A DNA stretch of 36,031 nt from a virus (IMGVR_UViG_2519103024_000004); one strand, 5' to 3'; positions 2,788 through 28,033 are shown, numbered from the stretch's first letter. A program made the numbers and translations. The notes: generated from the letters alone by a model not told the origin.

Positions 2788-3153
2788 TCAAAGGCTCTTA
2801 ATGATTTTCAGTGCGCGGCCTACTACCTCAATGTCATCCAGACCGCACTCAAACGATGAATCATCCTGATGCACTACTAATTTGTTTCCCGGGAGCCGAG
2901 TCAATTTAACAATGCTTTTTATCCCGTCGATATCGACTAACCACATACCATTTACTGGTGGTGTTTGGTTGCGATCTATTAAATAAGAATCACCAGAAGT
3001 AGTCACCAGCAGTAGGTTGCTTGAGTCTGAGGGGAGTATGCTGCTATCAATGATTGCTTTTCCAGCATCGACCAATAAACCACCGTTGAGAGTCGCCTTG
3101 TCAATTTCAGGAGATACTAGTTCAGAAAGAGGTACAACCTTGCTGGAGTTCAC
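2788..3153 (-). CDS. S24/LexA-like autoproteolytic C-terminal domain of a CI-type repressor, separated from the HTH ORF by an apparent frameshift
   Basis: 121-aa ORF with GTG start; TSGDSY (Ser nucleophile context) and VKLTRLPGNK...SSFE resemble the LexA/lambda-CI S24 domain; its frame opens within an A7 run (minus strand, plus 3164-3170) where the HTH ORF ends. Confidence 0.55.
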   Translation of the reverse strand: MNSSKVVPLSELVSPEIDKATLNGGLLVDAGKAIIDSSILPSDSSNLLLVTTSGDSYLIDRNQTPPVNGMWLVDIDGIKSIVKLTRLPGNKLVVHQDDSSFECGLDDIEVVGRALKIIKSL

Positions 3154-3419
3154 GGAATTGATATTTTTTTAGGTTTAATGTTTGGACCTGGCTCTCCCTG
3201 TCCGGTGGTTAGCCACAGTAAAGAAACTCCTGTTTCCAAGGCGCACTGAATCACCCACTCTGCAGGAAAACTATCTCTTAAGTATCTGTTTGCCATGGTG
3301 CTTTTTGATGCGCCTAAGTGATCGCAAAGTTGCTGTCTGGACTTGAAATCATAGGCTGCCATTAGTCTATGGATAGCCTCTCTTCCCCCTGTATTCTCTC
3401 CAGCCTTTACCTGTATCAT
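3150..3419 (-). CDS. HTH DNA-binding N-terminal part of CI-type prophage repressor
   Basis: 89-aa ORF at the P2 C / 186 cI position, divergent from the early operon; Q-rich helix-turn-helix-like segment (SRQQLCDHLGASKSTMANR); AGGA ribosome-binding site upstream. Confidence 0.6.
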   Translation of the reverse strand: MIQVKAGENTGGREAIHRLMAAYDFKSRQQLCDHLGASKSTMANRYLRDSFPAEWVIQCALETGVSLLWLTTGQGEPGPNIKPKKISIP

Positions 3420-3431
3420 TTTTTAATCCTG

Positions 3432-3483
3432 TTGACGTATCAAATATTGGATCGTAGTATCTCGATGTATCAAATATTGAATC
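3432..3483. promoter_or_regulatory. lysis-lysogeny switch region: promoter-like TTGACG-N17-TAGTAT with two operator-like repeats
   Basis: TTGACG at 3432-3437 and TAGTAT at 3455-3460 (17-nt spacer) face the apl-like gene; near-palindromic GTATCAAATATTG(G/A)ATC occurs at 3437-3453 and 3467-3483. Confidence 0.4.
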
Positions 3484-3538
3484 AAGTAAAACGAGATAAA
3501 ACGACGTAAACCAAACCTTAATCGGGAGATACTGCACT

Positions 3539-3781
3539 ATGAGCACTGATATTTCAATTCGTGTACCAAAAGAGATGGCTACGCCTGCAGAGTTCGCGGA
3601 ATGGGAAGGTATCTCCCGCGGCTCCGTGTATCAAAAAATTCACCATGGTCAGCTTGCTAAATACATGGTCAAGAAAGAAAAAAACAAAGGCCGCGTAAGT
3701 CTGCGTTATTTAATGTACAAAACCGATCAGGTCCGTGAATCCCTCGGTCATTCCAACTTCCGCGTCATTGTTGGTAAGTGA
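3539..3781 (+). CDS. Apl/Cox-like excisionase/transcriptional regulator
   Basis: 80-aa basic ORF, first gene of the rightward early operon opposite the repressor; GGGAG ribosome-binding site. Confidence 0.55.
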   Translation: MSTDISIRVPKEMATPAEFAEWEGISRGSVYQKIHHGQLAKYMVKKEKNKGRVSLRYLMYKTDQVRESLGHSNFRVIVGK

Positions 3782-3813
3782 GTTCAATTATGAGAACTTT
3801 CTAAGGGGATAGC

Positions 3814-4323
3814 ATGTTTGATTATAAGATTTCCAAACACCCGCATTTTGATGAAGCCTGTAGAGCTTTTGCACTTCGTCACAATATGGCGAAGCTGGCA
3901 GAACGTGCAGGAATGAATGTCCAGACTCTGCGAAACAAACTCAACCCAGATCAACCGCATCAGCTCAATGCGCCAGAAATCTGGCTGCTTACCGATCTGA
4001 CTGAAGATTCAACGCTGATAGATGGTTTTCTGGCACAGATTCACTGCCTGCCATGTGTACCGATTAATGAGGTAGCAAAAGAGAAACTGCCGCATTACGT
4101 CATGAGTGCAACCGCAGAGATCGGGCGTGTTGCTGCAGGTGCGGTATCTGGCGATGTAAAAACCAGTGCAGGTCGTCGTGATGCTATCAGCAGCATTAAC
4201 TCTGTAACACGACTGATGGCGCTGGCTGCTGTTTCACTGCAGGCCCGTTTACAGGCTAACCCTGCGATGGCGAGTGCAGTTGATACCGTGACTGGCCTCG
4301 GTGCTTCATTCGGTTTGCTGTGA
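3814..4323 (+). CDS. CII-like lysogeny-establishment regulator (phage 186 CII-like)
   Basis: 169-aa ORF directly after the apl-like gene; size and position match 186 cII; AAGGGGA ribosome-binding site. Confidence 0.55.
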   Translation: MFDYKISKHPHFDEACRAFALRHNMAKLAERAGMNVQTLRNKLNPDQPHQLNAPEIWLLTDLTEDSTLIDGFLAQIHCLPCVPINEVAKEKLPHYVMSATAEIGRVAAGAVSGDVKTSAGRRDAISSINSVTRLMALAAVSLQARLQANPAMASAVDTVTGLGASFGLL

Positions 4324-4330
4324 GGTGCTT

Positions 4331-4531
4331 ATGCTTACGAAAGAACCATCATTTGCATCGCTGCTGGTTAAACAAAGCCCGGCAATGCACTACGGTCACG
4401 GCTGGATCATGGGTGAGGATGGTAAACGCTGGCATCCGTGCCGTTCACAAGATGAATTGCTGGCAGAACTATCTACGAAAAAACGGGGGAACAAATGGCT
4501 ATTGAAGGCGCTGCGGCGACTGTTCCATTAA
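4331..4531 (+). CDS. hypothetical early protein
   Basis: ATG at 4331 preceded by GAGGTG; 66 aa; in the early operon. Confidence 0.4.
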   Translation: MLTKEPSFASLLVKQSPAMHYGHGWIMGEDGKRWHPCRSQDELLAELSTKKRGNKWLLKALRRLFH

Positions 4532-9214: not shown

Positions 9215-9348
9215 GAAACGTTGCTGGCGTCTGAACTTGCTTCTGGCGTCAGCAAGGTTGAACAACGAGCCCTTGCGAGGCGTTAGCTCTGTAGTGCATG
9301 TCTATGCCGCATGAGATCGCATGATCGTTTGAGGATCGTTTTTGCTAA

Positions 9349-9374
9349 GGCCCGCCAGAACTGGCGGGCTTTTG
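9349..9374 (+). terminator. rho-independent terminator candidate after the DinI-like gene
   Basis: GCCCGCCAG / CTGGCGGGC 9-bp stem followed by TTTTG. Confidence 0.45.
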
Positions 9375-9410
9375 CGTAGATCATGCAGGTGCATGAAAAC
9401 CACTACATAA

Positions 9411-9446
9411 AGCGGGCAGGCGTGGCGGGGATACGAGCGCGCACTC
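9411..9446. other. candidate cos (cohesive end) region
   Basis: GGCGTGGCGGGGA... resembles the start of the P2/186 cohesive-end sequence as I recall it; lies in the A-to-Q intergenic region where P2 cos sits; partial match only. Confidence 0.25.
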
Positions 9447-9642
9447 TGGGGTAAAATGGTCAAAATCCACCGCAATTTACTGGCTCGGGAACGTAGTTAG
9501 TTTTGTAGGTATAAACGGCTCTCACGTTAGATAGGCATGCAGGATGTGTTAAATCGTTGTGATGAAGTTAACGGTGACTGAGACAGTTTAGGTCTAAGAT
9601 ATAACTTCTGGGTTAGTTAAAAATTGGAATAGTAAGACATTT

Positions 9643-9939
9643 ATGAAAACTACTTATAGCTATGATTTTCAATATATGCGCAAAGGTCAGGATCGCCCTG
9701 ATGATGATGGAGAGGTTGTAGGGTGTAATTCAGAAGACAACTCGCTTTTGATGCTTCCAAATGTGGGAGACTACGTAACAATTACGAATAAGGGTGGGCG
9801 TGCTCAATTTGATGGGCGGGTGAAAACAAGGCTTTTCAATTACCTACGCATTGCTGATGGTCATGTTCATTGCTCCATTTGCATTGTAGTTGAGGAAGTT
9901 GATATGGACTCCGTATGGGGGGCACTAATTAAAGAATAA
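9643..9939 (+). CDS. hypothetical small protein (cargo between cos and portal gene)
   Basis: 98-aa ORF preceded by AT-rich promoter-like DNA; no P2 counterpart recognised; followed by a hairpin. Confidence 0.45.
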   Translation: MKTTYSYDFQYMRKGQDRPDDDGEVVGCNSEDNSLLMLPNVGDYVTITNKGGRAQFDGRVKTRLFNYLRIADGHVHCSICIVVEEVDMDSVWGALIKE

Positions 9940-9945
9940 TAGAAT

Positions 9946-9961
9946 GCCTGCAAATGCAGGC
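9946..9961. terminator. hairpin between convergent genes (possible bidirectional terminator)
   Basis: GCCTGCA-AAT-TGCAGGC inverted repeat between the 98-aa ORF stop and the Q stop. Confidence 0.35.
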
Positions 9962-9969
9962 GCTTTAAT

Positions 9970-11010
9970 TTACTCAGAAATATCTAAGTTGTAAGATTCA
10001 AAGCAAATCACTTTTTCACCTAGCCAGTTGTTCAGCTCTTGCAGCCGCTTTTGCAGTGGCATCAGTTCATTGCGGACAAACACTCGACTAGCCTTCTCCA
10101 CATCCCCAAACCCCCCGACATTATTAGGCATTATCCCCATCATTTGTGGCGGCACACGATGCGCCGCCATCATGTCGTCCCGGCTCACGTTCTTGATATT
10201 CAGGAACTCATCCTTCGCCGCCACTTCTGACAACGGGATAATCTGAAGCCCGTCCTTTTTACCGTTAGGCGAGTACATAAACAGGTTACGGAAGTTACCA
10301 GGACCTTTGGCGCTTTTCATCGCATTGCGGAGGTTGTTCACATCCTCCTGGTTCTGCGCAGCATCGGTCATGTACATGATGAAGCCTGCATGACTGCCGT
10401 TAATGTAATACTTGCGACGGAACAGCGTGGCGGACTCGTTGAGCAGGGCTGACGGAATGGCAGAAAGATAACCGGGCAGGCCGTAGATCTCCTGGTTAAT
10501 GTCCGGTTCCATCAGATGAAAAATGCTGCCTTTCGTGAACTGATACGGCTGGGTTGTCATACCGTATTGCACAAACCAGTAGGTATCCAGGTCTAACCCG
10601 CGTCGGGTGTATTTTGCCAGTGCAGGCTCAAGGGCGATAACTTCACCGAAGCGGTTCGTGCGTTTCTCCAGGTAGGCGTTACCAAAAACCAGATAGTCCT
10701 GCACAAAACGCGAAAAAGCCTGCTGGCTGAGCAGCGGGTGAGGGATGTAGGTGCTGGTCAGAATGTTGCACTTCACTGCAATCGGTGAGCTGTGATGCAC
10801 GGCGGCGCGGAAGGTTCGCGCCAGTCCGTCGAAACTCACAGGCGGCTCATACCAACGATCCATCTGTACGCATTCCACATAGTCCAGCAGTTCGCGGCGG
10901 TCCAGAACAGGAACGGGATCACCGAAGCTGAATGCTTCGGCTGAAGTCTGGCTTTTATGCTGGATCTGTTTCGTCGACGCAGCGCGGTTCTTCTTACTCT
11001 TTCCCATCAA
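9970..11010 (-). CDS. Q: portal protein (P2 gpQ-like)
   Basis: 346-aa ORF, convergent partner of P in conserved Q-P order; size matches P2 Q. Confidence 0.9.
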   Translation of the reverse strand: MMGKSKKNRAASTKQIQHKSQTSAEAFSFGDPVPVLDRRELLDYVECVQMDRWYEPPVSFDGLARTFRAAVHHSSPIAVKCNILTSTYIPHPLLSQQAFSRFVQDYLVFGNAYLEKRTNRFGEVIALEPALAKYTRRGLDLDTYWFVQYGMTTQPYQFTKGSIFHLMEPDINQEIYGLPGYLSAIPSALLNESATLFRRKYYINGSHAGFIMYMTDAAQNQEDVNNLRNAMKSAKGPGNFRNLFMYSPNGKKDGLQIIPLSEVAAKDEFLNIKNVSRDDMMAAHRVPPQMMGIMPNNVGGFGDVEKASRVFVRNELMPLQKRLQELNNWLGEKVICFESYNLDISE

Positions 11011-18284: not shown

Positions 18285-18723
18285 ACTGCAGAAAGTGGAC
18301 GACTGGCTGAGTGCCTTGCTGGCGAATCTGGAGCCAGCCGCAAGAAGCCGCATGATGCGCCAGCTGGCGCAGGAACTGCGCCGGATACAGCAGCAGAACA
18401 TCAGGATGCAACGCAATCCAGATGGCAGTAGTTATGAACCGCGACGGGTAACAGCACGCAGTAAAAAGGGGCGCATCAAACGTCAGATGTTTGCAAAGCT
18501 GCGAACCACAAAATACCTGAAAACTGCCGCCAGCGCCGATTCTGCCAGCGTGCAGTTTGAAGGCAAGGTACAGCGCATTGCCCGTGTTCACCATTACGGC
18601 TTGCGTGATCGCGTCAGCCGTAAGGGGCCACAGATACGTTATGCTAAACGTAGGTTACTTGGAATTTATGATACTGATTTTGATATTATAGAAGAGATAA
18701 TCATAAATTTTTTGATTCGTTAG
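18277..18723 (+). CDS. S: tail completion protein (P2 gpS-like) with an altered, AT-rich-encoded C-terminus
   Basis: N-terminal MAELQKVDDWLSALLANL... resembles P2 S as I recall it; the last ~17 codons lie in AT-rich DNA and overlap the 3' end of the convergent cargo gene. Confidence 0.8.
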   Translation: MAELQKVDDWLSALLANLEPAARSRMMRQLAQELRRIQQQNIRMQRNPDGSSYEPRRVTARSKKGRIKRQMFAKLRTTKYLKTAASADSASVQFEGKVQRIARVHHYGLRDRVSRKGPQIRYAKRRLLGIYDTDFDIIEEIIINFLIR

Positions 18724-19861
18724 ATTCATTAATTTTCTTAAAGTATGAGTCTATTTTTTCAATTAATAAATTGATGCTTTTTATAAATTCTTTTGTTTCT
18801 TTCTCTGTTGGTTCATGTGATGTATGAGCTATTTTGTCACGTAATTCTTTCCTGTTTTTATTTGCATGTTGCCACTCAAGTGGCGCAATTTCGGGTACAG
18901 AGATGTTAAAGAGTTGTTTGAATAGTTTTTTACATCTATCATCGAACTTCCAGTTTTTATTTAATGTTTCTTTTGTCTGGCATTCATTGATACCATTGCG
19001 ATGAAAGGCATTAATAATTTTTCTGAGAATATAGCTTTCAAGGCCTGCTGATGCTTCAATTACGGCTGATCTAAATGCACCTTTATGAACAAGATTGTCT
19101 GCTCTAATCAATAATAGTTCAGGATGTTCATTGAATTCATTTGACATTAAACGTTTTTTGAAATTATCAATGAGACTTTCATCGTGTTTATACCAGCTTT
19201 CTCTCATTAATGGGGGGATTACTCCAACTAAAGGAATTGCACTTATCTTAATACCATCGCAATAATGCTCTTGTAACACTCCGTTGGTAAATCCTGAGCC
19301 AACTTGATAAAGAGATATCTCGTCTGCAAATTGATCTTTAAAGGCAACTCTATACTGTTTTATAAAGTGGTTTATTATTCCGATACATTCCTCTGATCTT
19401 TTAGGTGGAAATATCTCTCTAGCAGTTTTTATTTTTCTCTCTAACTCTATTTTTTTATCTATATCTTGCTGGCTCATTTTGGATAGGAGCATCTCAGCAT
19501 CTTCCACAGATGGGAAGTTATCTTCTTTCCTTATTTGGTTTCTTATAGAGTTGATTAGTTCTTCATGTGATATTTCTAAAAGGTCAAAACATTCCCAATA
19601 GTTGGCGAGAGAAATAATAGTCCGGCATTTCATTATCCCTCTTTCATTTGTGTGATGTGGTAGTAGTTGTTCTCTGGTACCGATTAATAGGGTTTGAGGG
19701 AATAAGCTTGCATCTTTAAATAGTGCATAGTAATCGTTGTGAACTGTTAAGCGTAAATGGTTATTTTCATATAGAAAATCATAATCACCATCTGGAATAT
19801 TGAGGACATAAGGCAACTCGACCAAGTAACGTGCAGCAAAGATCATTTCAGTCATCTTCAT
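18701..19861 (-). CDS. hypothetical 386-393-aa protein (AT-rich cargo at the S/V junction); possible HEPN-like Rx4H motif near the C-terminus
   Basis: long minus-strand ORF in a ~1.2-kb AT-rich island inside a GC-richer tail operon; likely ATG at 19859-19861 (the track's upstream start is TTG); RDKIAH fits Rx4-6H. Confidence 0.6.
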   Translation of the reverse strand: MKMTEMIFAARYLVELPYVLNIPDGDYDFLYENNHLRLTVHNDYYALFKDASLFPQTLLIGTREQLLPHHTNERGIMKCRTIISLANYWECFDLLEISHEELINSIRNQIRKEDNFPSVEDAEMLLSKMSQQDIDKKIELERKIKTAREIFPPKRSEECIGIINHFIKQYRVAFKDQFADEISLYQVGSGFTNGVLQEHYCDGIKISAIPLVGVIPPLMRESWYKHDESLIDNFKKRLMSNEFNEHPELLLIRADNLVHKGAFRSAVIEASAGLESYILRKIINAFHRNGINECQTKETLNKNWKFDDRCKKLFKQLFNISVPEIAPLEWQHANKNRKELRDKIAHTSHEPTEKETKEFIKSINLLIEKIDSYFKKINESNESKNL

Positions 19862-19874
19862 ATGAGAATTCAAT

Positions 19875-19892
19875 TGTGCCAAAAATCATACA
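19875..19892. promoter_or_regulatory. late-promoter activator site candidate (TGT-N12-ACA) upstream of V
   Basis: TGTGCCAAAAATCATACA immediately upstream of V; lies in the divergent region shared with the cargo gene. Confidence 0.4.
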
Positions 19893-21767: not shown

Positions 21768-22365
21768 TCTGCTGCCACCGGGTTCAACACCACTGGAGCG
21801 CCGATTGGCGCATACGTGCAGCGGGATTTCTGATCTGAAGGTGCCGCTGCGTGACTTGTGGAATCCGGCTACCTGTCCGGTCAGCTTCCTGCCTTATCTC
21901 GCCTGGGCGTTCTCTGTGGATCGCTGGGACGAGGGCTGGACAGAAAGCGTCAAACGCCAGGTGGTGAAGGATGCTTTTTATATTCATCAGCATAAAGGGA
22001 CCACCAGTGCCGTGCGGCGGGTGGTGGAGCCGTTCGGCTTTCTGATCCGCATTATTGAGTGGTGGCAGACCGGAGAAACACCGGGCACGTTTCGCCTGGA
22101 TATCGGCGTGCAGGACCAGGGCATCACTGAAGATACCTATCTGGAACTTGAGCGACTGATAAGCGATGCCAAACCATGTAGCCGCCACATGATCGGCATG
22201 TCCATCAATCTGCAGACCAGCGGCCCGCATTGGGTGGGAGCCGCCAGCTATCTTGGCGAAGAAATCACGATCTATCCGTATATCAACGGAACGATTATTT
22301 CCGGTGGCACCGCGCATGAAGGCGGGGCGGTCCATGTTATTGACACAATGAGAGTGAATCCATGA
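21760..22365 (+). CDS. I: baseplate/tail protein (P2 gpI-like)
   Basis: 201-aa ORF overlapping the J stop and H start. Confidence 0.8.
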   Translation: MNSLLPPGSTPLERRLAHTCSGISDLKVPLRDLWNPATCPVSFLPYLAWAFSVDRWDEGWTESVKRQVVKDAFYIHQHKGTTSAVRRVVEPFGFLIRIIEWWQTGETPGTFRLDIGVQDQGITEDTYLELERLISDAKPCSRHMIGMSINLQTSGPHWVGAASYLGEEITIYPYINGTIISGGTAHEGGAVHVIDTMRVNP

Positions 22366-24146
22366 GCACAAAATTTTATACCCTGCTGACGGATATTGGC
22401 GCGGCGAAACTTGCCAGCGCCGCCGCGCTCGGTGTGCCGCTAAAAATTACCCATATGGCGGTGGGCGATGGCGGCGGAGTATTGCCAACGCCGGACGCAA
22501 AGCAGACGGCACTGGTAAATGAGAAACGCCGGGCTGCGCTGAATATGCTTTATATCGACCCGCAGAACAGCAGCCAGATTATTGCTGAACAGGTGATCCC
22601 TGAAAACGAGGGCGGTTGGTGGATACGTGAAGTGGGCCTGTTTGATGAGTCCGGGGCATTGATTGCCGTGGGCAACTGCCCGGAAAGCTATAAGCCGCAA
22701 CTGGCTGAAGGCAGCGGGCGCACCCAGACCGTGCGCATGGTGCTGATTACCAGCAGTACGGACAATATCACCCTGAAAATCGACCCTGCTGTAGTGCTGG
22801 CAACCCGTAAATACGTGGATGATGAAGTCCTGGAATTAAAGCTGTATGTGGATGACCAGATGAGAAACCACATTGCCGCACAAGATCCTCATACCCAGTA
22901 TGCGCAGAAACATAATCCGACATTTACCGGAGAACCAAAAGCGCCGACGCCTGCAGCAGGAAATAACACCACGCGGATTGCGACCACTGAGTTTGTTCAG
23001 GCCGCTATTACTGCTCTGATTAACGGTGCGCCAGCCACGCTGGACACACTGAAAGAAATTGCCGCAGCCATTAACAATGACCCGAAATTCAGTACCACCA
23101 TTAACAATGCGCTGGCACTAAAAGCACCGCTGTCGAGTCCGGCACTCACCGGAACGCCAACAGCACCTACTGCGGCACAGTCGGTCAACAATACACAGAT
23201 TGCCACTACAGCTTTTGTGAAATCAGCGATTGCAGCAATGGTGGGTTCTGCACCCGCGGCACTGGATACACTGAACGAACTGGCGGCGGCACTGGGGAAT
23301 GATCCGAACTTTGCCACGACAATGCTTAATGCGCTGGCAGGTAAACAACCGCTGGACAATACGCTTACCAATTTGAGTGGAAAGGATGTAGCTGGTCTTC
23401 TCGCATACCTTGGTTTGGGAGAAGGCTCTGCATTACCTGTTGGTGTGCCTGTTCCGTGGCCCTCCGCAACCCCGCCAACGGGCTGGCTGAAATGCAACGG
23501 CGCTGCCTTTGATAAGGTGAAATATCCCCATCTTGCTACAGCATATCCATCAGGGAAACTACCTGATCTCCGTGGTGAGTTTATTCGTGGATGGGATGAC
23601 GGGCGTGGTATTGATGCAGGACGTGCTTTATTGAGCATTCAGACTGGGATGCTGGAAAAACACCGCCATATTGTTGTTGCCAACGATGGGTATGATTCAA
23701 AAGAGGAATGGGAACTGGCGACAATCTTCAGAAGAGCATATACGCAAGGCCGGGGCTTGATGCTGCCGATGCCNNNNNNNNNNNNNNNNNNNNTTGGTTT
23801 GGGAGAAGCGGCAAAAAAGAATGTGGGGACAGGGACGAATCAGATACCTGATATGGGTAGCTTCACGCTTTCTGTTTCAGGTACTGGATATCAAAAATTA
23901 CCATCTGGTTTTATTCTTCAGTGGGGCTCAATCGGCGCACCAGGCATTGCACAGGATGTGGTAACCCATTTTCCGATTGCATTTCCAAACCGATGTCTGC
24001 GTGTTTTGGTCTCACAAGACTACACACCAGATAGCGGGGCTGTTGGTTATATTGCCTGTGCAGGTTTTAGTCCCGACCCGGTTAAATTTATATCCAGAGC
24101 CAGTACTCCTGGCCTCGGCGCTTCATTTTTAGCGTTAGGCTGTTAA
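22362..24146 (+). CDS. H: tail fibre protein (P2 gpH-like); assembled ORF spans a 20-N gap, so the C-terminal part is uncertain
   Basis: Ala/Thr-rich repeats, then a tail-collar-type receptor-binding segment ([18 protein letters not shown]...[17 protein letters not shown]); Ns at 23774-23793. Confidence 0.7.
23410..23773 (+). repeat. copy A of the tail-fibre variable segment (plus orientation), truncated by the N gap
   Basis: reverse complement of 25289-25652, including the first codons of the alternative tip; differs by a one-base G-run length (G4 at 23752-23755 versus C5 at 25317-25321). Confidence 0.6.
23774..23793. other. assembly gap (20 N)
   Basis: run of n characters in the sequence. 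Confidence 0.99.
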
Positions 24147-24167
24147 TTTAGCTATATGGAGTGAAAA

Positions 24168-24608
24168 ATGAATTACATATATTCCGCGACTACAAACTCT
24201 TTCTATCCGCTGGAGATGAAAGAGGATTACACTCAAGCTGACTCATGGCCAGATGATGCTGTTGAAGTTGATGAGCAAGTGTATATTGAGTTTTCCGGAT
24301 TACCGCCGGAAGGAAAAATCCGTATCGCTGGAGAAAATGGTTTTCCTGCATGGTCTGAAATTCCACCACCAACACATGAGGAACAGATTGCTGCAGCCGA
24401 ACTGGAAAAGCAGCAACTGATTAATCAGGCCAACGATTATATGAACAGTAAACAATGGCCTGGTAAAGCGGCTATTGGTCGTCTGAAAGGTGAGGAACTG
24501 GCGCAATATAATCTGTGGCTGGATTATCTGGACGCACTGGAGCTGGTCGATACTTCCAGTGCGCCAGATATTGAATGGCCTACGCCTCCGGCAGTTCAGG
24601 CCAGATGA
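24168..24608 (+). CDS. tail fibre assembly chaperone
   Basis: 146-aa ORF directly after the fibre gene; C-terminal ...LDYLDALELVDTSSAPDIEWPTPP typical of Tfa proteins. Confidence 0.75.
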   Translation: MNYIYSATTNSFYPLEMKEDYTQADSWPDDAVEVDEQVYIEFSGLPPEGKIRIAGENGFPAWSEIPPPTHEEQIAAAELEKQQLINQANDYMNSKQWPGKAAIGRLKGEELAQYNLWLDYLDALELVDTSSAPDIEWPTPPAVQAR

Positions 24609-25182
24609 CATCCGGCGCGGTGCTGGTATCTGTTGCCGTCACCGCGTCAATGTAATCCAGCACAGCGTTAAGCCGGGTTGTTTCTGCCTGCGTCAGTTTC
24701 CGCCCGGCCTGTAATTTCAGCTGAATCAGACTAATGGAAGCCATTGCTGCATCAATCAGTGACTGGCGCTGTGCTTCTGCCGCTTCTACTGCGGCACCGT
24801 GTTGTGCCTCAGAATCTGTCACCCATTTCTCACCATCCCATTTATCATATGGCGTTAACGGGACGATAGTGGTTGTATTTTCAGGGTAATCACCCGGAGC
24901 TGTGATTTCTTTTGCTTCTCCTGTTTCGGTGCTATAGATAATTTCACCGCGATGGTCTGGCATATATTCCCATGAGTTTAAATCTACTGAACGGCAGATT
25001 GCATAACCAGCCTTATATGTGCCAGGAGCATCTAAACAGGAATATGCCGGGATACCGACACCAACGGCAAGATATTCATTTGAAGTGGAAATATATTCCC
25101 GTGTTTCACCATCATAGTTATAGACGGTAATATTCCCCGCCTTCGTGGCAATAAGTTCGCTATTTAATACGGCTTTATCCAT
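24580..25182 (-). CDS. alternative tail fibre assembly chaperone (inverted orientation)
   Basis: 200-aa ORF convergent with the other Tfa gene; C-terminal ...LDYIDAVTATDTSTAPDVIWPELP. Confidence 0.75.
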   Translation of the reverse strand: MDKAVLNSELIATKAGNITVYNYDGETREYISTSNEYLAVGVGIPAYSCLDAPGTYKAGYAICRSVDLNSWEYMPDHRGEIIYSTETGEAKEITAPGDYPENTTTIVPLTPYDKWDGEKWVTDSEAQHGAAVEAAEAQRQSLIDAAMASISLIQLKLQAGRKLTQAETTRLNAVLDYIDAVTATDTSTAPDVIWPELPEA

Positions 25183-25628
25183 TATGCAGCTCTCACGATA
25201 TAGTTAAATGCAATATTTCGTGGACGGGTTTCGCTCCCACCTGTGTTACCAATACTCCCTCGTGTATGTAGCGTTGGTGATGGAATCAGAGTTCCTCCGG
25301 CATCGGCAGCATCAAGCCCCCGGCCTTGCGTATATGCTCTTCTGAAGATTGTCGCCAGTTCCCATTCCTCTTTTGAATCATACCCATCGTTGGCAACAAC
25401 AATATGGCGGTGTTTTTCCAGCATCCCAGTCTGAATGCTCAATAAAGCACGTCCTGCATCAATACCACGCCCGTCATCCCATCCACGAATAAACTCACCA
25501 CGGAGATCAGGTAGTTTCCCTGATGGATATGCTGTAGCAAGATGGGGATATTTCACCTTATCAAAGGCAGCGCCGTTGCATTTCAGCCAGCCCGTTGGCG
25601 GGGTTGCGGAGGGCCACGGAACAGGCAC
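25182..25628 (-). CDS. alternative tail-fibre C-terminal (receptor-binding) segment, promoterless in this orientation
   Basis: 148-aa ORF with the same tail-collar motif as in H but a different tip (...DAADAGGTLIPS...NYIVRAA); arrangement as in Mu G / P1 C segments. Confidence 0.6.
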   Translation of the reverse strand: MPVPWPSATPPTGWLKCNGAAFDKVKYPHLATAYPSGKLPDLRGEFIRGWDDGRGIDAGRALLSIQTGMLEKHRHIVVANDGYDSKEEWELATIFRRAYTQGRGLDAADAGGTLIPSPTLHTRGSIGNTGGSETRPRNIAFNYIVRAA

Positions 25629-25652
25629 ACCAACAGGTAATGCAGAGCCTTC

Positions 25653-25672
25653 NNNNNNNNNNNNNNNNNNNN
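25653..25672. other. assembly gap (20 N)
   Basis: run of n characters in the sequence. Confidence 0.99.
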
Positions 25673-26084
25673 TCCCTCGTGTTATGTAGCGTTGTGATGG
25701 AATCAGAGTTCCTCCGGCACTCGGCTAGCATCCAAGCCCCCGGCCTTGCGTATATGCTCTTCTGAAGATTGTCGCCAGTTCCCATTCCTCTTTTTGAATC
25801 ATACCCATCGTTGGCAACAACAATATGGCGGTGTTTTTCCAGCATCCCAGTCTGAATGCTCAATAAAGCACGTCCTGCATCAATACCACGCCCGTCATCC
25901 CATCCACGAATAAACTCACCACGGAGATCAGGTAGTTTCCCTGATGGATATGCTGTAGCAAGATGGGGATATTTCACCTTATCAAAGGCAGCGCCGTTGC
26001 ATTTCAGCCAGCCCGTTGGCGGGGTTGCGGAGGGCCACGGAACAGGCACACCAACAGGTAATGCAGAGCCTTCTCCCAAACCAA
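25673..26084 (-). repeat. copy C of the tail-collar segment with small indels; likely assembly artefact or degenerate duplicate
   Basis: near-identical to 25243-25652 but with scattered single-base insertions and deletions; the track ORF 25561-26124 spanning the gap is chimeric. Confidence 0.45.
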
Positions 26085-26096
26085 CGTTTAAGAAAA
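26071..26096. promoter_or_regulatory. candidate invertase crossover site (gix/hix-like)
   Basis: TTCTCCCAAACCAACGTTTAAGAAAA matches about 19 of 26 positions of the hix/gix core as I recall it; its half-site TTGGTTTGGGAGAA recurs inverted at 23410 and after the N gap at 23794. Confidence 0.3.
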
Positions 26097-26145
26097 TGCA
26101 GAGGTAACAGCTAACTGGCATCATCTCCGGTTTTTATTCAGGGGG

Positions 26146-26718
26146 ATGATAATGCTTATTGGCTATGTACGCGTGTCAACAAATGACCAGAACACCGATT
26201 TGCAACGTAATGCACTGAACTGCGCGGGATGTGAGCGGATTTTTGAGGACAAAATCAGTGGTACTAAGTCCGACAGACCGGGGCTGAAAAAACTACTCAG
26301 GACACTATCGGCAGGAGACACGCTGGTTGTCTGGAAGCTGGACAGGTTGGGACGCAGTATGCGGCATCTTGTTACGCTGATAGAAGAGTTGCGCCAGCGT
26401 GGCGTGAATTTCCGAAGCCTGACTGACAGTATTGATACCAGTACCCCAATGGGCCGTTTCTTTTTTCATGTCATGGGTGCCCTGGCTGAAATGGAACGCG
26501 AACTGATAGTTGAACGTACCAGGGCGGGGATTGCTGCAGCTCGCGACAAAGGCAGAGTAGGTGGACGCCGTCCTAAGTTGACCACCGAACAGTGGGCACA
26601 GATTGGACGTTTACTAGAGGCCGGAGAATCAAGACAGCGTATTGCACTGATTTTTGATGTGGGCGTTTCTACCATTTATAGAAAATTTCCGGCAAATAAG
26701 AGCAGTGAATCCCCCTGA
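26146..26718 (+). CDS. serine recombinase, DNA invertase (Gin/Hin/Pin/Cin family)
   Basis: 190-aa ORF starting MLIGYVRVSTNDQ... with catalytic-Ser context and C-terminal HTH; adjacent to the inverted fibre segments. Confidence 0.9.
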   Translation: MIMLIGYVRVSTNDQNTDLQRNALNCAGCERIFEDKISGTKSDRPGLKKLLRTLSAGDTLVVWKLDRLGRSMRHLVTLIEELRQRGVNFRSLTDSIDTSTPMGRFFFHVMGALAEMERELIVERTRAGIAAARDKGRVGGRRPKLTTEQWAQIGRLLEAGESRQRIALIFDVGVSTIYRKFPANKSSESP

Positions 26719-26766
26719 ATCAGCATAATTTTGATTATCCCTGCAAGCAGACAAATACCGTCATTT

Positions 26767-26784
26767 TGTGTGAATAACTGTACA
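26767..26784. promoter_or_regulatory. late-promoter activator site candidate (TGT-N12-ACA) upstream of FI
   Basis: TGTGTGAATAACTGTACA centred about 85 bp upstream of the sheath gene start. Confidence 0.4.
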
Positions 26785-26860
26785 ACTACACTTAGCTGTT
26801 TGTCGGGCACAATCACTTCAACATAGGGCGAAGCCTAATCCAATCAGGAGGTTCGCCGCT

Positions 26861-28033
26861 ATGGCTCAGGATTACCACCACGGGGTGCGCGTTGTTGAAA
26901 TCAACGAAGGCACCCGATCCATTACCACGGTGAGCACCGCCATCGTGGGTATGGTCTGCACGGGCGATGATGCCGATGCAAAAATGTTTCCTCTTAATAA
27001 ACCCGTGCTGATCACTGATGTGCTGACTGCCAGCGGTAAAGCGGGTGGGTCCGGCACGCTGGCCCGTTCGCTGGATGCCATCGCTGACCAGGCAAAACCC
27101 GTGACCGTTGTTGTGCGTGTGCCGCAGGGTGAAACGGAAGAAGAAACCACGACCAATATCATCGGCGCAGTGACTGCTGAAGGTAAAAAAACAGGCATGA
27201 AAGCCCTGTTATCTGCCCAGACACAGCTCGGCGTTAAACCGCGCATTCTCGGCGTGCCAGGTCACGATAACAAAGCCGTTGCTACTGAGTTGCTGAGTGT
27301 GGCGCAAAGCCTGCGTGGGTTTGCTTACCTGTCAGCGTATGGCTGCAAGACGGTGCAGGAGGCGATCACTTACCGTGAAAACTTCAGCCAGCGCGAAGGA
27401 ATGCTGATCTGGCCCGACTTTACTGGCTGGGATACGGTGCTGAATGCCGAAGCAACGGCATATGCCACCGCCCGTGCGCTTGGTCTGCGTGCCAAAATTG
27501 ATGAGCAGACTGGGTGGCACAAAAGCCTGTCCAACGTGGGCGTGAACGGTGTCACCGGAATTTCTGCAGATGTGTTCTGGGATCTGCAGGACCCGGCAAC
27601 CGATGCAGGTCTGCTGAACCAGAACGACGTCACCACGCTTGTGCGTAAAGACGGTTTCCGCTTCTGGGGTTCCCGCTGCCTGAGTGATGACCCGCTCTTT
27701 GCCTTCGAAAACTACACCCGCACGGCGCAGGTGCTGACGGACACAATGGCAGAAGCGCACATGTGGGCAGTGGACAAACCGCTGAACCCGTCGCTGGCGC
27801 GCGACATTATCGAGGGCATCCGCGCCAAAATGCGCAGCCTGGTCAGTCAGGGGTATCTCATTGGTGGTGATTGCTGGCTGGACGAGTCGGTGAACGACAA
27901 AGACACTCTGAAAGCCGGAAAACTCACCATCGACTACGATTACACGCCAGTGCCGCCACTTGAAAATCTGATGCTGCGCCAGCGCATCACCGATCAGTAC
28001 CTGGTGAATTTCGCCAGCCAGGTCAGCGCGTAA
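26861..28033 (+). CDS. FI: contractile tail sheath protein (P2 gpFI-like)
   Basis: 390-aa ORF with GGAGG ribosome-binding site; size and position as P2 FI. Confidence 0.9.

Follow-up and report, generated by a model that had tools for sequence, protein, structure and literature searches.

A probable two-state Pin/Gin-type tail-fibre inversion switch in a P2-like prophage of Escherichia coli, with a tail-collar tip triplicated by scaffold assembly

Introduction

Invertible tail-fibre segments governed by serine recombinases are annotated in public P2-like records, and phase variation has been demonstrated for them (PMC4272514); the type of switch considered here is, in that sense, already known. 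The subject of this report is one such segment in IMGVR_UViG_2519103024_000004, a stretch of 36,031 nucleotides (nt), referred to below as the window, which is a P2-like prophage of Escherichia coli. The closest characterised relative of the segment is the P segment of e14 with the invertase PinE in E. coli K-12, rather than the G segment of phage Mu or the C segment of phage P1. The e14 P segment measures 1797 base pairs (bp) (PMC12529663). The Mu G/Gin and P1 C/Cin systems have the same architecture as the locus described here, namely a constant fibre part (Sc), a forward variable tip and chaperone (Sv-U), a second pair in reverse (U'-Sv'), and the invertase gene.

The Salmonella Hin/H segment belongs to the same enhancer-dependent invertase subclass and also has two 26-bp sites, but Hin flips a promoter, whereas the system in the window flips fibre-gene coding ends along with the chaperone genes that belong to them. 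In the Hin-type mechanism, an invertasome is formed with a Fis-bound enhancer, the sites are cleaved at the central dinucleotide, and subunit rotation is followed by religation (PMC3798978). Among P2-like elements, the prophages of enteropathogenic E. coli (EPEC) E2348/69 have invertible loci for which sequencing of clonal cultures revealed both orientations side by side; these loci include a two-state version as well as a three-repeat, four-variant version (PMC4272514).

Here, it is proposed, at a probability of about 0.88, that the window contains a two-state Pin/Gin-type tail-fibre inversion switch of a P2-like E. coli prophage, that the threefold occurrence of its tail-collar tip is a scaffold artefact, and that the sequenced culture likely contained both orientations. 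The argument draws on gene and site identities, two in-frame fibre fusions, the exact collapse of the locus onto the span of a closed genome, mutually exclusive contig junctions, and the occurrence of both orientations in closed relatives.

Results

Gene content and relationship to described invertible segments

The locus comprises the following features, of which the sites, the scaffold gaps and the predicted enhancer are given without strand; lengths of proteins are in amino acids (aa), and ORF denotes an open reading frame.

22362-23409, plus strand: N-terminal constant part (Sc) of the P2-type tail-fibre gene H as far as the crossover, approximately residues 1-349; N-terminal domain Phage_tail_fib of Pfam (E 6e-65)
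23398-23423: left 26-bp recombination site (siteL), TTCTCGCATACC TT GGTTTGGGAGAA, inside the H reading frame, where it encodes ..LAYLGLGE..
23424-23773, plus strand: copy A, the 5' portion of Sv2 (the tail-collar tip) joined to Sc (orientation II junction), at the end of contig 1 and stopping at the N gap; 23410-23773, or 364 nt, with the half-site
23774-23793: scaffold gap 1, a run of 20 N
23794-24146, plus strand: gp53-like fibre tip Sv1 (116 aa), to the stop codon; Pfam Gp53-like_C, E 1e-13; contig 2 begins here with TT and the inner half-site (23794-23807)
24168-24608, plus strand: tfa1, the chaperone gene for Sv1 (146 aa); Pfam Caudo_TAP, E 2e-38; 55% identical to e14 TfaP
24580-25182, minus strand: tfa2, the chaperone gene for Sv2 (200 aa); Pfam Caudo_TAP, E 5e-32; 90% identical to e14 TfaE
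25182-25652, minus strand: copy B, the complete and genuine tail-collar tip Sv2 (159 aa); 57% identical to e14 StfE
25653-25672: scaffold gap 2, a run of 20 N
25673-26070, minus strand: copy C, the 5' part of Sv2 at the start of contig 3 (orientation I junction), a duplicate of copy B with a match extending to 26073
26071-26096: right 26-bp recombination site (siteR), TTCTCCCAAACC AA CGTTTAAGAAAA, with two mismatches to the consensus
26152-26718, plus strand: Pin/Gin-family serine DNA invertase (188 aa), whose listed ORF begins at 26146; Pfam domains Resolvase (E 7e-53) and HTH_7 (E 1e-15)
26173-26236: predicted recombinational enhancer with two candidate Fis cores, within the 5' end of the invertase gene, proposed from position and homology

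The constant part Sc is 99.6% identical to that of E. coli G5 and 99% identical to that of PE144, and it comes after the baseplate genes J and I, as in N96. When Sc (22362-23409) is joined to 23794-24146, an in-frame fibre of 466 aa results, the length of the N96 coding sequence; when it is joined to the reverse complement of 25182-25652, an in-frame fibre of 509 aa is obtained, which has a Pfam Collar domain (E 4e-14) and the same length as in G5 (1530 nt). As in the Mu G, P1 C and e14 P segments, the constant part lies outside the invertible segment and reads in frame into either of the two C-termini. Each fibre tip is followed by its own co-oriented Caudo_TAP chaperone gene, and the two tip and chaperone pairs are convergent, with an overlap of 29 bp between tfa1 and tfa2. 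Convergent Tfa genes had already been recognised in the original prediction, which was made from the nucleotide sequence by itself and had described the locus as an invertible tail-fibre segment with a Gin/Hin-family invertase; the match of the invertase to Gin and PinE, the inverted 26-bp sites and the two in-frame fusions bear this description out.

Relative to e14, protein identities are 85.6% for PinE, 90% for TfaE, 57% for the StfE tip, 55% for TfaP and 29% for StfP, the gp53-like tip Sv1 being weakly related to the last of these. The gene order is the same (fibre, forward Tfa, reverse Tfa, reverse fibre tip, invertase), the inner half-sites and the central dinucleotide are identical, the right outer half-site differs by 1 nt, and the segment of approximately 1870 bp is similar in size to its e14 counterpart. 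Unlike e14, which is a defective lambdoid element, the host element here is an intact-looking P2-like prophage, and the constant part is of the P2 H type with a Phage_tail_fib domain.

The locus had previously been likened to the Mu G and P1 C host-range switches. The likeness holds for the architecture and the invertase family, but not for the closest relative, which is the e14 P segment, nor for the fibre tips, which are unlike Mu S and S'. The 26-bp sites are of the same design as in Mu, with site-to-gene and site-to-enhancer distances that agree within 1 bp, whereas the central dinucleotide is TC/GA in Mu and TT/AA here, the Mu segment measures approximately 3 kb as opposed to 1.87 kb, and the host here is a P2-type myovirus. 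A Mu-like fibre cargo was considered and rejected: both variable tips are without similarity to Mu S or S' (E > 0.1), although the invertase is Mu-like. P2-like loci of like kind and position are known from E. coli N96, PE144, G5, WS0115A and EPEC E2348/69, from Klebsiella phage KP12 and from the Escherichia phages pro483, Cartapus and 500465-1, and numerous further records of P2-like phages have the locus annotated at this position. Compared with these, the locus in the window shows no difference in kind; it differs by mosaic exchange of the constant part and tips and, in this assembly, by the duplication described below.

Recombination sites, invertase and candidate enhancer

The invertible segment of approximately 1.87 kb is bounded by siteL and siteR, and the crossover falls at approximately codon 350 of H, in the peptide AYLGLGE. 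The two sites are inverted with respect to each other, and their central dinucleotide, TT/AA on the plus strand, is the same once one site is flipped. siteL has a single mismatch to the palindromic consensus TTCTCNNAAACCNNGGTTTNNGAGAA, and the pair has the features of the crossover sites of enhancer-dependent serine invertases: two inverted 26-bp imperfect palindromes with a common central 2 bp. Both sites are identical in N96, PE144, G5 and WS0115A.

Three candidate crossover half-sites had been proposed in advance, and all three proved to be exact occurrences of the 14-mer TTGGTTTGGGAGAA, at 23410 (plus strand), 23794 (plus strand) and 26071-26084 (minus strand). Chance would be expected to yield approximately 0.34 matches at two or fewer mismatches, and the observed count was reached in 0 of 100 shuffles. 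The 14-mer is made up of the central dinucleotide and the inner half-site of the full 26-bp sites, and its copy at 23794 is a truncated site at the start of contig 2. A third crossover site, of the kind found in a shufflon, was looked for and rejected, as a consensus scan of the whole window returned only two full sites and none other at five or fewer mismatches; the next-best candidate, at 18639, has six mismatches, which is at chance level (mean 0.97 per shuffle).

The reading frame at 26146-26718, previously called a serine invertase gene, has the make-up of the enhancer-dependent serine invertases, small recombinases of approximately 190 aa with an N-terminal catalytic domain, a nucleophilic serine near residue 9-10 and a C-terminal helix-turn-helix (HTH). 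It aligns over its full length with the Mu Gin structures 3UJ3 (E 8e-93) and 4M6F, with the GYVRVST motif and the catalytic serine aligned. Identities are 85.6% to e14 PinE, 74.5% to Mu Gin and approximately 66% to P1-type Cin, and reach 98.9% for the invertase annotated in Klebsiella phage KP12, which is P2-like. The true start is likely the third codon of the ORF, at 26152, because the Gin and PinE alignments and a RefSeq homologue of 188 aa all begin there. A scan for promoters and terminators around the gene returned two terminator-like hairpins, at chance frequency.

Two candidate Fis cores of the form G-N13-C (15 bp) are located at 26173-26187 and 26222-26236, which places them 96.5 and 145.5 bp from the centre of siteR. 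The equivalent cores in Mu gin are 95.5 and 144.5 bp from gixR, so that the distances agree within 1 bp, and the first candidate core matches its Mu counterpart in 14 of 15 nt. In the Hin system, the proximal Fis site natively lies approximately 100 bp from hixL (PMC3798978), as compared with 96.5 bp to the first candidate core here. By analogy with these systems, inversion at this locus would depend on Fis and on the enhancer.

Triplication of the tail-collar tip

A segment of approximately 360 bp occurring three times beside two 20-N gaps was among the features first reported, and each occurrence can be placed as copy A, B or C. No N runs other than these two gaps occur in the window. Contig 1 extends to 23773, 350 nt past siteL and inside Sv2. 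Contig 2 (23794-25652) is made up of the invertible segment. Its first bases are the central TT, it breaks off 3 nt into the inner half-site at the other end, it has an outer half-site at neither end, and it is 99.95% identical to N96. Contig 3 begins at 25673, approximately 400 nt within Sv2, and continues across siteR into the invertase gene.

Copy A is the exact (100%) reverse complement of part of copy B (25299-25652) except for one homopolymer indel (GGGG versus CCCCC) near the contig end. Copy C, in which scattered indels had been noticed earlier, differs from copy B by six indels and no substitutions; all six fall in 25673-25793, the first approximately 120 nt of the copy, and four of them are changes in homopolymer length. 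Removal of copy A with its gap (384 bp) and copy C with its gap (421 bp) leaves 3796 bp, which is exactly the N96 span (1204441-1208236) and aligns with it as one colinear end-to-end block at 97.7% identity. A single tail-collar copy is present in all five closed loci examined. Copies A and C are assembly artefacts, and the real DNA has one tail-collar tip, because the collapsed length equals the N96 span, the duplicates differ from copy B only by indels resembling read errors, and each of them ends at an N gap. Their overhangs of approximately 350-400 nt are most likely error-bearing contig ends of read length.

Indels of the same homopolymer type relative to N96 were also seen elsewhere in the window, where AA is extended to AAA at approximately 886 and T8 is shortened to T7 at approximately 3163. 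The former splits an anti-phage dCTP deaminase gene into ORFs at 1-891 and 1049-1759, and the latter splits the CI repressor gene, leaving an ORF at 2788-3153 where N96 has one of 633 nt. Like the indels in copies A and C, these two are probably sequencing errors of the draft; with a CI that was truly frameshifted, a stable lysogen would be difficult to explain.

An ORF of 594 aa (22362-24146) that reads through gap 1 is a chimera of Sc, part of the tail-collar tip, eight X residues and the gp53-like tip, since copy A and gap 1 belong to the assembly artefact. Automatic annotation of the scaffold would yield a false two-tip fibre protein. For annotation, copies A and C are to be removed, the true locus being 3796 bp long with one tail-collar tip.

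Orientation of the segment in the assembly and in closed genomes

Contig 1 contains the junction Sc-siteL-Sv2, which corresponds to orientation II, while contig 3 contains inverted Sv2-siteR-invertase, which corresponds to orientation I. These junctions are mutually exclusive, because one molecule with a single Sv2 cannot hold both. The start of contig 2 at exactly the position where the two orientations diverge is what is expected of a read-graph fork at the crossover. It had been suggested that reads from both orientations were scaffolded together; the exclusive junctions on contigs 1 and 3 and the collapse to the N96 span argue for this reading, and the sequenced culture most likely contained both orientations.

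In closed genomes, the segment occurs in orientation I in N96 and PE144 and in orientation II in G5 and WS0115A. Across these four, the outer half-sites are fixed, the inner halves move with the segment, and the breakpoints fall at the same sites. The prophage of G5 is among the closest matches to positions 1-22300 of the window, and its Sv2 region is 87% identical at the nucleotide level. Among closed E. coli genomes, contiguous junctions were found in 27 cases for Sc-Sv1, in 37 for Sc-Sv2 and in 139 for inverted Sv1-invertase. Taken together with the sites, these arrangements indirectly indicate that the segment inverts with exchange at the central dinucleotide, and the invertase in the window may well be active at present.

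Decayed versions of the switch were encountered in two genomes. In GN02461 (5796-7370 of the extracted locus), the tail-collar orientation is fixed, Sv1 is lost, and only remnants are left of the second Tfa gene and of the invertase HTH. In G5 (3107-4486 of the extracted locus), IS1A is inserted in tfa2, the TfaE-like chaperone gene.

Genomic setting of the locus

Positions 1-22300 of the window are colinear with closed E. coli chromosomes at approximately 97-98% identity, and the matching chromosomal regions are annotated with integrase, CI, replication endonuclease, portal, terminase, 'major capsid protein, P2 family', lysis genes and baseplate V/W/J/I. Colinearity with annotated closed prophages, including their sheath and tube genes, yields the P2-type (Peduoviridae) structural gene order: portal-terminase/scaffold-capsid, followed by S, V, W, J, I and H and, farther on, FI, FII, E and T. 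As in P2-like relatives, the switch is placed between the constant part of the tail-fibre gene H and the sheath gene FI.

Positions 22300-26900 have at least partial matches in 3030 of 5426 closed E. coli genomes, at a median of two places per genome and at up to 11. The best closed match is E. coli N96, in which the annotated order is tail protein I, tail-collar fibre protein, two convergent tail-fibre assembly proteins, a reverse-strand 'phage tail protein', a recombinase family protein and tail sheath.

A TGT-N12-ACA dyad at 26767-26784, approximately 85 bp before the start of the sheath gene (26861), resembles the Ogr-dependent late-promoter element of P2, although approximately nine occurrences of so short a motif are expected per 36 kb by chance. 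If the dyad is such an element, the invertase cassette would directly precede the FI late promoter and occupy the position that Z/fun has in P2 itself.

Two further spots of the window differ from N96. A 393-aa ORF (18701-19882, minus strand) is situated in an island of 32-34% GC between the tail-completion gene S and the baseplate gene V, a spot where N96 has only a 68-bp spacer and GN02461 has a TIR-domain gene. Its sole match is PHROG 28299, of unknown function; nothing above the cut-off was returned from Pfam, PADLOC or NCBIfam, and no tblastn match was found in the phage collection. The ORF looks like horizontally acquired cargo and is possibly a defence gene. The second spot, 9287-10006, lies between the portal gene and a DinI-like gene and is a place where the cargo of the prophage varies; it does not align to N96, which has other cargo there (hypothetical and DUF4145 genes), and its ORF at 9643-9939 matches only PHROG 12676, also of unknown function.

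Discussion

The proposed mechanism for the two-state switch, drawn by analogy with Hin and Gin, is as follows. Dimers of the invertase would bind the inverted siteL and siteR, and the two sites would be synapsed as an invertasome on the enhancer, bound by Fis, within the 5' end of the invertase's own gene. Both sites would be cut at the central TT/AA, half of the complex would rotate by 180 degrees, and religation would leave the segment of approximately 1.87 kb flipped. In orientation I, Sc would be joined to the 116-aa gp53-like tip to give the 466-aa fibre, followed by tfa1, while in orientation II, Sc would be joined to the 159-aa tail-collar tip to give the 509-aa fibre, followed by the TfaE-like tfa2. 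Expression would be limited to the tip and chaperone pair that reads in the direction of the late tail operon, and progeny would carry one of two receptor specificities; both the expression from the late tail operon and the change of receptor and host range are expected to follow the Mu G, P1 C and e14 P paradigm. With mixed orientations in the culture, the assembler would have broken contigs at the sites and left overhangs on the flanking contigs.

Several points weigh against this reading. The enhancer is predicted from position and homology, and the second candidate Fis core is G+C-rich. The spacing between the two candidate cores is 49 bp, while that of the Fis sites in Hin is 48 bp. A simple scan returned no sigma-70-like promoter upstream of the invertase gene. 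The heterogeneity of the culture is deduced from contig junctions, to which a paralogous locus has some small chance of having contributed, as many E. coli genomes have several related fibre/invertase modules.

In its full form, the last of these points would mean that the duplicated ends come from a second, paralogous prophage locus in which an identical tail-collar module is oriented the other way, or else from reference-guided or otherwise faulty scaffolding. The abundance of related fibre/invertase loci in E. coli makes such a source conceivable, and the low quality of the scaffold, with its homopolymer indels elsewhere, would suit a scaffolding fault. Paralogues and homologues from other strains, however, differ by several percent or more, as illustrated by e14 StfE (57% protein identity) and the Sv2 region of G5 (87% nucleotide identity), while copies A and C show no substitutions relative to copy B over 350-400 nt. 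In addition, the break in contig 2 falls precisely on the crossover dinucleotide, as it would at a fork produced by inversion, and both overhangs run into the unique flanks of this prophage. An origin in paralogy or faulty scaffolding is therefore considered unlikely.

It is less likely still that the switch is a fossil, with an invertase or sites that are inactive here and junctions that stem from two clones mixed in the culture, one fixed in each orientation. Decay of this kind has precedents in GN02461, where the invertase and Sv1 have been lost, and in G5 with its IS1 in tfa2. In the window, by contrast, the invertase ORF is complete and its product can be aligned to Gin from end to end, catalytic serine included, both sites are identical to those of genomes in either orientation, and both fibre fusions and both chaperone genes are intact. 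That all three copies are real contiguous DNA, forming a multi-site, shufflon-like region with three crossover sites, is scarcely credible in spite of the three occurrences of the 14-nt half-site and the published three-repeat, four-variant locus in a P2-like prophage (PMC4272514), given that the third site is a half-site cut at a contig start beside only two full sites, that copy C carries six frameshifting indels and no substitutions, that each duplicate ends at an N gap, and that the collapsed length matches the single-copy N96 span of 3796 bp, with five of five closed loci being single-copy.

Beyond the two-state switch itself, inversion in the resident prophage might conceivably matter to the host cell. 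In e14, the StfE2 fusion that PinQ creates was recently reported to be a receptor-masking, anti-adsorption factor (PMC12529663). One of the fibre fusions in the window might act in this manner within the lysogen, or the segment might be flipped in trans by other Pin-family invertases, which is imaginable because the sites are almost identical to those of e14. Either suggestion is highly speculative and has a very low likelihood, the sequence offering nothing specific for a host-cell role or for flipping in trans.

In biological terms, the two-state switch adds nothing new in kind: fibre segments of the Pin/Gin type are common in P2-like prophages, and related pieces occur in approximately 3000 of the 5426 closed E. 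coli genomes. For draft sequences of such prophages, junctions of both orientations in a single assembly are an inexpensive indication of switch activity in the culture that was sequenced.

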